DNA from: a virus
Taxonomy: Duplodnaviria > Heunggongvirae > Uroviricota > Caudoviricetes
Reading direction: 5' to 3' (one strand)
Virus record (IMG/VR): IMGVR_UViG_2602041568_000014
DNA length: 5,222 bases
Shown: one piece after another, positions 2,149-2,955 of the stretch
Layout: the number at the start of each line of letters is the position of its first letter
Numbering within the stretch: position 1 is the stretch's first letter
Program-made: the position numbers and the translations under genes
The notes under the pieces: generated by a model
What the model was told of the DNA's origin: nothing
What the model saw: the letters and a program-made list of their open reading frames with translations, nothing else
The model's database searches: none

Positions 2149-2955
2149 TTATATACGCCCTTTCAGATAAGTCATCCCCGGCTGCATCCAGTCAACAGGT
2201 GCTTTCTTAAAGGGCGTATTATCAAAATCACGCAGAAGAGCCTCCAGCACAACTGCATCATTGTCAGCACCACTGGCCATCATTTCAATCTCAGCTGCTA
2301 CCTGCAGATATCCCATGCAACGACCAATGCGCTTCATCAGCCCCTGCTTTTTATTGTTCTTCAGGTAGTCAATGGCAAATTCAATGAGCGCCTCACTATG
2401 CTGGTGCGATGGCGGTGTTAATTTCCCATTTTCTGAGATGGTTATTTTCCCGCCATCTCCGTATACAACAAAGGATGGCCGGTTACACTCCCATTCCTGA
2501 TCTTTATCAGGTGCAGACGCAATAAAATAACGTTTATTTCCTTCCTCTCCGGCACTTTTAACCGTAATGGAGTACTCAGACTGCAGACAAGACGCCTCTT
2601 TTTCTGACCGCAGTGTTGACGGCGGCATCTTCAGAGAACCAGTAATTATTCCCGGTAGTTTTCCTCTGTAGGTTATCAACACATCCTGCGCCTCTAAAAT
2701 TACGGGGCGCTTTTCCGGCAACGGTTCGTTCCCTTCACATAACCCGGCAGCAACATCCATGAAAAACTGCTTCGCCTGCTTTTTCGCCTCAGCTTCGTAA
2801 AACTCCAGCGTGGCACCTTCAGTACGGTCAAGACTAATCGCCACATCTGGCAACAACAGTGACGGATACCCACCAATTTCCAGTGCCACAGTAACAGTAA
2901 TCTTATCCGGATAATTATTTATCCCTTTAACACCCAGTTCGTATTTTTTCTTCAT
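2149..2955 (-). CDS. hypothetical cytoplasmic protein, 268 aa, function unknown
   Basis: Long uninterrupted ORF with ATG at 2955 preceded by GGGGGGAG (7-nt spacer). Same strand as the flanking late genes. No signal peptide, TM segment or catalytic motif that I can recognise. Stop codon is 9 bp from the stop of the convergent 104-aa ORF. Confidence 0.75.
   Translation of the reverse strand: MKKKYELGVKGINNYPDKITVTVALEIGGYPSLLLPDVAISLDRTEGATLEFYEAEAKKQAKQFFMDVAAGLCEGNEPLPEKRPVILEAQDVLITYRGKLPGIITGSLKMPPSTLRSEKEASCLQSEYSITVKSAGEEGNKRYFIASAPDKDQEWECNRPSFVVYGDGGKITISENGKLTPPSHQHSEALIEFAIDYLKNNKKQGLMKRIGRCMGYLQVAAEIEMMASGADNDAVVLEALLRDFDNTPFKKAPVDWMQPGMTYLKGRI

Follow-up and report, generated by a model that had tools for sequence, protein, structure and literature searches.

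A long YdfR-family gene and its convergent neighbour

The stretch of DNA analysed here (hereafter, the window) comprises 5,222 nucleotides (nt) of the IMG/VR virus record IMGVR_UViG_2602041568_000014, assigned to the Caudoviricetes, and contains two open reading frames (ORFs) which converge tail to tail: a gene for a protein of 268 amino acids (aa), starting with ATG on the minus strand, and a 104-aa ORF on the plus strand, here called p104 (Table 1). Both were found in the ORF listing of the window exactly where an initial annotation of this DNA had placed them, and the 9 base pairs (bp) that it had counted between the two stop codons were also borne out (positions 2140–2148); a consensus scan of this gap revealed no terminator-like site. 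The other minus-strand genes of the window encode a SASA/nanS-p esterase, the endolysin R, two small membrane ORFs and Rz/Rz1, which makes the window the late region of a lambdoid prophage in reverse orientation.

With regard to its position, the pair had been located between the nanS-p esterase and the lysis genes, which had to be corrected. The sequence preceding the 268-aa gene translates to the C-terminus of the holin S (..LTNLYFKIREDRRKAARGE*), and the annotated gene order in the Stx2-converting phage 86 is stx2AB, esterase, S, gp05 (268 aa, 'YdfR family'), gp06 (104 aa, opposite strand), R, ant, Rz/Rz1 and bor; the pair is thus part of the lysis cassette and separates S from R. An equivalent slot, between essQ and rrrQ, is occupied by ydfR in Escherichia coli K-12. 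The ATG of the 268-aa gene is found 4 nt past the stop codon of S, its Shine-Dalgarno sequence (GGGGGAG) overlaps the end of S, and the gene is translationally coupled to S in the window. Upstream of this point, a run of 89 Ns (3020–3108) stands for 321 bp of the 96–99% identical phage 86, so that codons 1–52 of S, the spacer that separates S from the esterase gene, and the end of the esterase gene itself are masked. An apparent 643-aa esterase ORF ending at position 3016 is an artefact of a frame read through these Ns.

The larger protein had been described as devoid of any assignable motif, a statement that proved wrong, as residues 1–100 match the Pfam family DUF1327/YdfR (PF07041) with 150.5 bits against a cutoff of 25 (E = 1.5e-44). 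Within this N-terminal domain, BLASTP aligns residues 1–77 with K-12 YdfR at 45% identity (E = 4e-21). An alignment of E. coli relatives with Salmonella relatives of ~30% identity resolved a three-part anatomy. The N-terminal domain has a folded core in the AlphaFold2 model, which covers residues 1–73 and consists of three strands followed by a helix; it is followed by a variable linker, modelled at low confidence (residues 70–154) and in relatives often equipped with a coiled-coil insert, and by a conserved C-terminal domain (CTD). The latter is characterized by the motif H..(E/D)..I..I..L....K.(I/L)GRxMGxLQxAAEIE...D(F/L)DxPPFK...W..PG..YLK.R, with L198, G211, R212, L217, Q218, A220, P248, K250, W256, P259 and Y263 as invariant positions, and its ratio of non-synonymous to synonymous substitutions (dN/dS) is 0.25–0.34. 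Both the 268-aa protein and p104 are soluble, with no transmembrane or hydrophobic segment found in either, and the initial view of the former as a cytoplasmic protein is reasonable.

The location that characterizes the YdfR family, between holin and endolysin, was found in the window, in phage 86 and in K-12; the single-domain architecture of ~100–115 aa was not, given the 268 aa of the window protein with its extra linker and 113-aa CTD. Homology to a late phage protein, which the initial annotation had regarded as speaking against an accessory role for the pair, therefore exists in part: the YdfR family does hold the S–R slot of lambdoid lysis cassettes, but it is a family without an established function. 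The large protein thus belongs to a known but uncharacterised family, and the family is narrow. Of 1.84 billion representative proteins, no more than 109 were matched in a profile search, the named ones being all from Escherichia, Shigella or Salmonella, and a scan of species-representative genomes yielded relatives only in Escherichia and Shigella.

Sequence searches of the PDB with both proteins, in single-sequence and in profile mode, gave nothing significant, and the best matches (Pcc1, PhoU and a designed protein; E = 0.035–0.19) look spurious. Similarly, Foldseek found no PDB match at E ≤ 0.001 for the model of the 268-aa protein, a weak search because of the poor quality of the model (predicted local distance difference test, pLDDT, of 52.7), and for the same reason we did not build upon the double-stranded RNA-binding domain proteins that appeared at E = 0.06–1. 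An origin of the CTD as a repeat of the N-terminal domain was ruled out by hhalign (probability 0.1%), as was a relationship between the CTD and p104.

Both the 268-aa gene and p104 are real genes, as judged from dN/dS, retained ORF length, an invariant ribosome-binding motif and a confident structural model of p104. When the window was compared with the variant L034 (~20% DNA divergence), dN/dS of p104 was 0.44 in its own frame and 0.53–1.67 in the other five frames, which contain 5–10 stops. Homologues of p104 keep 104–107 codons, without insertions or deletions, in 13 variants at 29–100% identity, and a GAGG located 7–8 nt before the ATG is invariant. Furthermore, the AlphaFold2 model of p104 shows five helices with a pLDDT of 88.8 and a predicted template-modelling score of 0.82, although it was built from seven sequences only. 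In light of these results, the notion that p104 is no gene but a fortuitous ORF, opposite a late-operon spacer that is not translated, is hardly credible, even if a canonical p104 promoter was not found, the p104 family consists of only a few dozen protein clusters, and its annotation has never gone beyond 'hypothetical'.

Table 1. Features of the locus and their positions in the window.
Feature	Position	Strand	Basis or remark
Long-form YdfR-family gene, 268 aa	2149..2955	(-)	ORF list, Pfam, phrog_1085, phage 86 comparison
N-terminal DUF1327/YdfR domain, residues 1-100	2656..2955	(-)	Pfam, AlphaFold2, BLASTP
Variable linker, residues 101-155	2491..2655	(-)	Alignments, AlphaFold2
Conserved C-terminal domain (CTD), residues 156-268, 113 aa	2152..2490	(-)	Alignments, profiles
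p104, 104 aa	1825..2139	(+)	ORF list, phrog_1853; convergent to CTD gene, antisense to late operon
Holin S 3′ end, class II: last 19 codons and stop	2960..3019	(-)	Translation, phage 86 comparison
Endolysin R, Phage_lysozyme; next late gene downstream of the pair	1163..1696	(-)	ORF list, Pfam, PHROG
p104 upstream region and leader	1712..1824	(+)	Alignment; partly conserved between E. coli and Salmonella
Putative weak promoter-like TTTATC, 17-nt spacer, TATGTT	1712-1717, 1735-1740	(+)	Inferred only
Predicted hairpin CGCCAGCG-GTAGGA-CACTGGCG, then five Ts	1753-1774, 1775-1779	(+)	RNAalifold, 8 bp
GAGGA, Shine-Dalgarno of p104	1814-1818	(+)	

Pairing of p104 with the C-terminal domain and truncated forms

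In order to describe how far the two genes travel together, the association has to be read in both directions. Starting from p104, a convergent CTD gene was present beside it in 42 of 42 IMG/VR loci (in one of these, both 3′ ends were clipped by a deletion), in five further IMG/VR lineages, and in 17 of 17 metagenome loci; no p104 was located away from a CTD gene in any locus recovered. Stop-to-stop spacing between both genes was −18 to +21 nt in 13 variants, the identities of both proteins fall in step, and convergent pairing persists down to ~30% identity and with differing flanking genes. Starting from the CTD, only 25 of the 80 best IMG/VR loci have p104, and in the other 55, R begins ~40–46 bp past the CTD stop. 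A similar profile was observed in complete E. coli genomes (n = 5,426), with CTD DNA in 787 genomes and 970 places and p104 in 95 genomes and 132 places. The initial proposal of a two-gene module consequently stands as far as p104 is concerned, every recovered copy having its convergent CTD gene, but not for the CTD gene, which mostly occurs without p104. The module described here consists of two genes and is based on a known family; it is conserved, yet facultative, and we are highly confident about its identity, position and conserved pairing.

The partner of p104 is the CTD, not the DUF1327 domain, because the 142-aa, CTD-only protein of the divergent contig L250 still has a convergent p104 homologue of 107 aa, which overlaps it by 18 nt (hhalign probability 97.3%, E = 1.8e-11). 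A 213-aa E. coli form with a different N-terminus is also paired with p104. Furthermore, linker, CTD and p104 stay 100% identical among E. coli loci in which identity of the N-terminal domain varies between 60 and 97%, which indicates a recombination breakpoint near codon 115. As a separate observation, in L005 (3122–4226) and L233, a 185-aa CTD ORF is followed by a separate 75-aa DUF1327 ORF and by an unrelated convergent ORF of 95 aa.

Salmonella enterica prophages hold long homologues, in which the CTD is ~40% identical and the N-terminal domain recognisably related. There, the module is not inserted between S and R; it lies upstream of the holin, in the interval after the antiterminator Q, and often beside HicAB. 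The holins that adjoin module loci vary (Phage_holin_2_1, 2_3 and 3_1), with three families represented next to Salmonella modules. In six of the eight Salmonella variants sampled, a convergent 105-aa ORF was found 5–21 nt past the stop, and this ORF is a p104 homologue (44% identity, E = 4e-28); one of the remaining variants lacks a convergent ORF and the other has an unrelated 86-aa ORF. The Salmonella p104 homologues were missed by a word-indexed protein search and surfaced through genomic context only. We conclude that the module predates the divergence of these E. coli and Salmonella prophages, and that the pairing is both ancient and portable.

Several other arrangements were observed among the divergent loci. 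The unrelated 86-aa convergent ORF of the Salmonella locus L135 (4854–5114) overlaps the extended C-terminus of its neighbour by 38 nt. In L249 (963–1532), the gene of P0193, the full-length relative that diverges most, has no convergent p104 behind it; its place is taken by a 189-aa ORF of the same direction, for which membrane segments are predicted and which precedes the holin. In Salmonella, HicA/HicB toxin-antitoxin genes directly precede the module, after Q and before the long YdfR gene, and occur in either orientation (L135–L140, L244 and L246–L248). A canonical intrinsic terminator is present on the late strand of the Salmonella loci L247 (3740–3758) and L248 (3656–3674), between the region upstream of the 105-aa ORF and the holin, and the Salmonella module may thus be followed by a terminator through which Q-modified polymerase has to pass.

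Genes of the ydfR type occur in over half of the complete E. coli genomes, in the lysis cassettes of lambdoid and Shiga-toxin prophages, and their products are annotated as short proteins of unknown function. The O157:H7 locus encoding a 114-aa 'YdfR family protein' (L006, 3048–3392) aligns to positions 1649–1762 and 2620–3019 of the window with 95–97% identity. It is a simple 857-bp deletion (window 1763–2619), in which half of the hairpin in the p104 leader, p104 itself, the CTD and the linker are gone, and its last codons and stop derive from the antisense of the p104 leader. Another type, represented by L075, is a 410-bp deletion (window 1719–2128) that left the last 11 nt of p104, and in the L099 type, the spacer was replaced. 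Two of these forms are simple deletions, and the data suggest more generally that short YdfR proteins of ~100–114 aa and the long E. coli forms lacking p104 are products of decay or replacement. Given these deletion-derived forms, the copy in the window is the intact one, and loss of p104 has occurred more than once; the long form appears to be ancestral.

The annotation of the long form is itself affected, as RefSeq/PGAP systematically labels intact long YdfR ORFs of 268 and 296 aa as pseudogenes ('incomplete, missing C-terminus') and covers their first ~112 codons only. Such mislabelled intact ORFs were found in the outbreak strain E. coli O104:H4 2011C-3493 (L133, 5325–6131; O3K_RS27015), in L002 and in L134. 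As a consequence, the CTD is left unannotated in many complete genomes.

On the opposite strand, E. coli and Salmonella show partial conservation over the ~110 nt that precede p104. The predicted leader hairpin also occurs in Salmonella, and the base-pair variants encountered (C-G/U-G, G-C/G-U and C-G/U-G/U-A) fit only the p104-sense strand; we regard the conserved hairpin as a lead, not as proof. A TAnnnT hexamer precedes the conserved CAGCC of the hairpin region by 7–8 nt in every lineage, which hints, on sequence grounds, at a weak p104 promoter that would place the hairpin at the 5′ end of the mRNA. In E. coli, the hairpin with its run of five Ts resembles an intrinsic terminator or attenuator in the p104 leader, and in a second predicted stem of weak significance, UCCU pairs with the GAGG of the Shine-Dalgarno sequence. 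A search of window positions 1600–3019 against Rfam 15 gave nothing near gathering scores. An 11-bp inverted repeat (2153–2163/2209–2219) was considered as a shared terminator of both genes and dropped, since it has no T-run on either strand and stems from the LKG and PFK codons of the CTD.

Proposed function and competing explanations

Experimental information for this family concerns K-12 YdfR only. Bacterial two-hybrid assays as well as Strep pull-downs showed that residues 1–72 of that protein bind Rne(1–597), i.e., the N-terminal, catalytic half of RNase E, and the protein co-purified with RNA (PMC13232886). Its overproduction was not toxic, did not slow growth and changed few transcripts (PMC13232886).

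The explanation that we favour as a whole, to which we assign somewhat less than an even chance, is that of an intact, portable module in which the 268-aa gene acts late and p104 is its modulator. The long YdfR protein would be made late only, together with S and R, and would act in the cytoplasm, where its N-terminal domain, by analogy with K-12 YdfR, might use RNA and/or the catalytic half of RNase E as its docking site, and the CTD might supply an effector or partner-binding function. p104 would be transcribed from its own weak promoter against late transcription, and so be made in the lysogen or in early infection, until Q-driven late transcription runs through it and shuts it off. An overlap of the transcripts of both genes at their 3′ ends is plausible from the sequence and to be expected with stops only −18 to +21 nt apart. 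p104 might therefore serve the CTD protein as a specific, though dispensable, antagonist or modulator, acting at the protein level and/or through antisense or transcriptional interference, and would confine the activity of the larger gene to the late phase. This mechanistic layer, i.e., RNase E docking, p104 antagonism and convergent wiring, is speculative, and we consider it unlikely to hold in full. An even more extended version, which we judge improbable, depicts the pair as an effector/antagonist switch of temperate enterobacterial phages, wired through convergent transcription, where p104 would neutralise the effector in the lysogen (stemming from the leaky own prophage or from a related superinfecting phage), late transcription would silence p104, and the effector, with RNase E and RNA as its targets, would then reprogram host RNA decay at lysis; the truncated E. 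coli 'YdfR' genes, including that of K-12, would in this case be relics.

A series of observations weighs against the modulated module and its mechanism. RNase E binding is known solely for the 45%-identical K-12 protein, the overproduction of which altered few transcripts, as stated above, and the model of the 268-aa protein is poor (pLDDT 52.7), with weak fold searches. About 86% of E. coli CTD genes are without p104, and these lone CTD alleles are under purifying selection (omega 0.12–0.43), which indicates that the CTD protein works without p104, and that p104 is therefore neither essential to it nor an obligatory antidote. The strict adjacency of both genes could partly come from the tiny spacer, which leaves little room for recombination, and not from function. 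As for the expression of p104, strict sigma-70 scans of E. coli and Salmonella loci did not find a canonical promoter, covariation in the leader hairpin rests on one pair and was not above that in shuffles (93 of 500), and the fold of the leader reached a z-score of only −1.86.

A competing explanation is that the two genes are unrelated cargo, neighbours by descent only and functionally unlinked, with p104 being an independent lysogen-expressed gene that, like lambda bor, runs against the late operon, arose once beside the CTD and was then inherited or deleted. We consider this somewhat unlikely. The frequent solitary occurrence of the CTD gene under purifying selection, at least two independent deletions that removed p104, the acceptance of unrelated convergent ORFs of 95 aa (L005/L233) and 86 aa (L135) in the same slot, and the small recombination target offered by a spacer of 5–21 nt are all compatible with it. 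Nevertheless, adjacency, convergence and tight spacing were kept down to ~30% identity, and pairing was also kept while the other flank of p104 changed (R in E. coli, three holin families in Salmonella) and while the N-terminal half of the larger gene was swapped or absent; unlinked genes in mosaic lambdoid phages seldom stay together for so long. A different role for the larger protein would be that of a cytoplasmic regulator of lysis timing, similar to an antiholin or co-antiholin that targets the class II holin S at its cytoplasmic tail, and tuned by p104. Cytoplasmic holin regulators exist, e.g., T4 RIII, and the gene always adjoins the holin, on either side and in the late direction, with translational coupling to S in the window. 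ydfR was also among the hits of a screen for envelope integrity (Paradis-Bleau et al. 2014, as cited in PMC13232886). However, no lysis-category PHROG and no such Pfam family was matched, many functional lambdoid lysis cassettes do without the gene, and the conservation of the CTD across holins of the types Phage_holin_2_1, 2_3 and 3_1 disfavours a specific holin contact, which together make lysis timing a distinctly unlikely role.

The initial annotation had considered a defence, anti-defence or toxin-like system, and this group of readings, in which toxin-antitoxin and abortive-infection pairs may be included, found no support. The small size and tight linkage of the two genes, their lack of a known function and their place among prophage cargo would be in line with such a role, as would the location of the Salmonella module beside HicAB, between Q and the holin. 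Nonetheless, neither protein matched the PADLOC-DB v2 hidden Markov models at E ≤ 1, NCBIfam gave no match for either of them, Pfam yielded no defence or toxin match, and no structural homology was found for the pair. The larger gene is a late-operon gene coupled to S and lacks a promoter of its own, the presumed 'toxin' is intact without its partner in most loci, and the family, with its 109 representatives among 1.84 billion proteins, is confined to the lysis regions of Escherichia and Salmonella prophages. Together with the unimpaired growth of cells that overproduce the K-12 homologue (PMC13232886), this renders a defence or toxin pair very unlikely, and the late-acting module with p104 as modulator is retained as the preferred explanation.

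Relation to known systems and further observations at the locus

The closest known relative, YdfR of the K-12 Qin prophage, has in common with the window protein a homologous N-terminal domain, the slot between holin (essQ or S) and endolysin (rrrQ or R), and solubility. In contrast, it has only 103 aa, made up of the N-terminal domain and a short helix, and the linker, the 113-aa CTD and the convergent partner gene are features of the window form. Phage modulators of host RNase E include T4 Srd, T7 gp0.7 and phiKZ Dip. The window protein would share with them the contact with RNase E in lytic growth, if its N-terminal domain acts like K-12 YdfR; it differs from them in the absence of sequence or fold similarity and in being late and not early, and the transcriptome responded little to K-12 YdfR. 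Accessory lysis regulators encoded inside lysis cassettes, such as T4 RI/RIII, P1 LydB and P2 LysA/LysB, are comparable as non-essential genes located next to the holin and co-expressed with lysis genes, whereas the window protein has neither homology to them nor a membrane segment, and its CTD is kept across holin families.

In terms of its orientation, p104 can be compared with two lambda elements that are transcribed against a major phage operon, namely the oop RNA, which overlaps the 3′ end of cII, and bor, which is expressed in the lysogen. Like these, p104 runs against the major phage operon. Unlike them, it is a conserved protein gene tied to one neighbour, and regulation at the RNA level is here only proposed; with regard to an oop/cII-type arrangement, the 9 bp between the stops contain no terminator-like site, and the ORFs of L250 overlap by 18 nt. 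In type II toxin-antitoxin pairs, two small genes likewise lie side by side and are passed on jointly with a mobile element, but the present genes are convergent and do not form a co-directional operon, the larger gene is often alone, and neither homology nor evidence of toxicity links them to such pairs.

Our literature search on phage 86 orf5/orf6, on the protein accessions and on DUF1327 found nothing functional. The long architecture, the conserved partner gene, the conservation between Escherichia and Salmonella, and the origin of short forms by deletion appear to be undescribed in the literature. The short YdfR forms are suggested to be remnants of a two-domain protein that, from E. coli to Salmonella, has a dedicated partner on the opposite strand. 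The pair is a concrete, testable candidate for a long-unexplained slot of the lysis operon, and ties this slot to the clue of RNase E binding. In phages of the phage 86 type, the gene is expressed along with the lysis genes that lie downstream of stx, and an influence on the stability of late mRNA or on lysis timing, if there is one, would consequently matter for toxin release.

Finally, some minor features were noted elsewhere in the window. A second run of Ns, 37 bases long, is located at positions 144–180, near the end of Rz. Between R and Rz, two small hydrophobic ORFs are encoded on the minus strand (823–1062 and 677–898; phrog_1115 and phrog_4906), and phage 86 has its antirepressor gene ant in this place. 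The N-terminus of R (MNTKIKYGLSAAVLALIAAGAPAP) looks like a signal-anchor-release (SAR) segment, which would suit a cassette of the pinholin/SAR-endolysin type.

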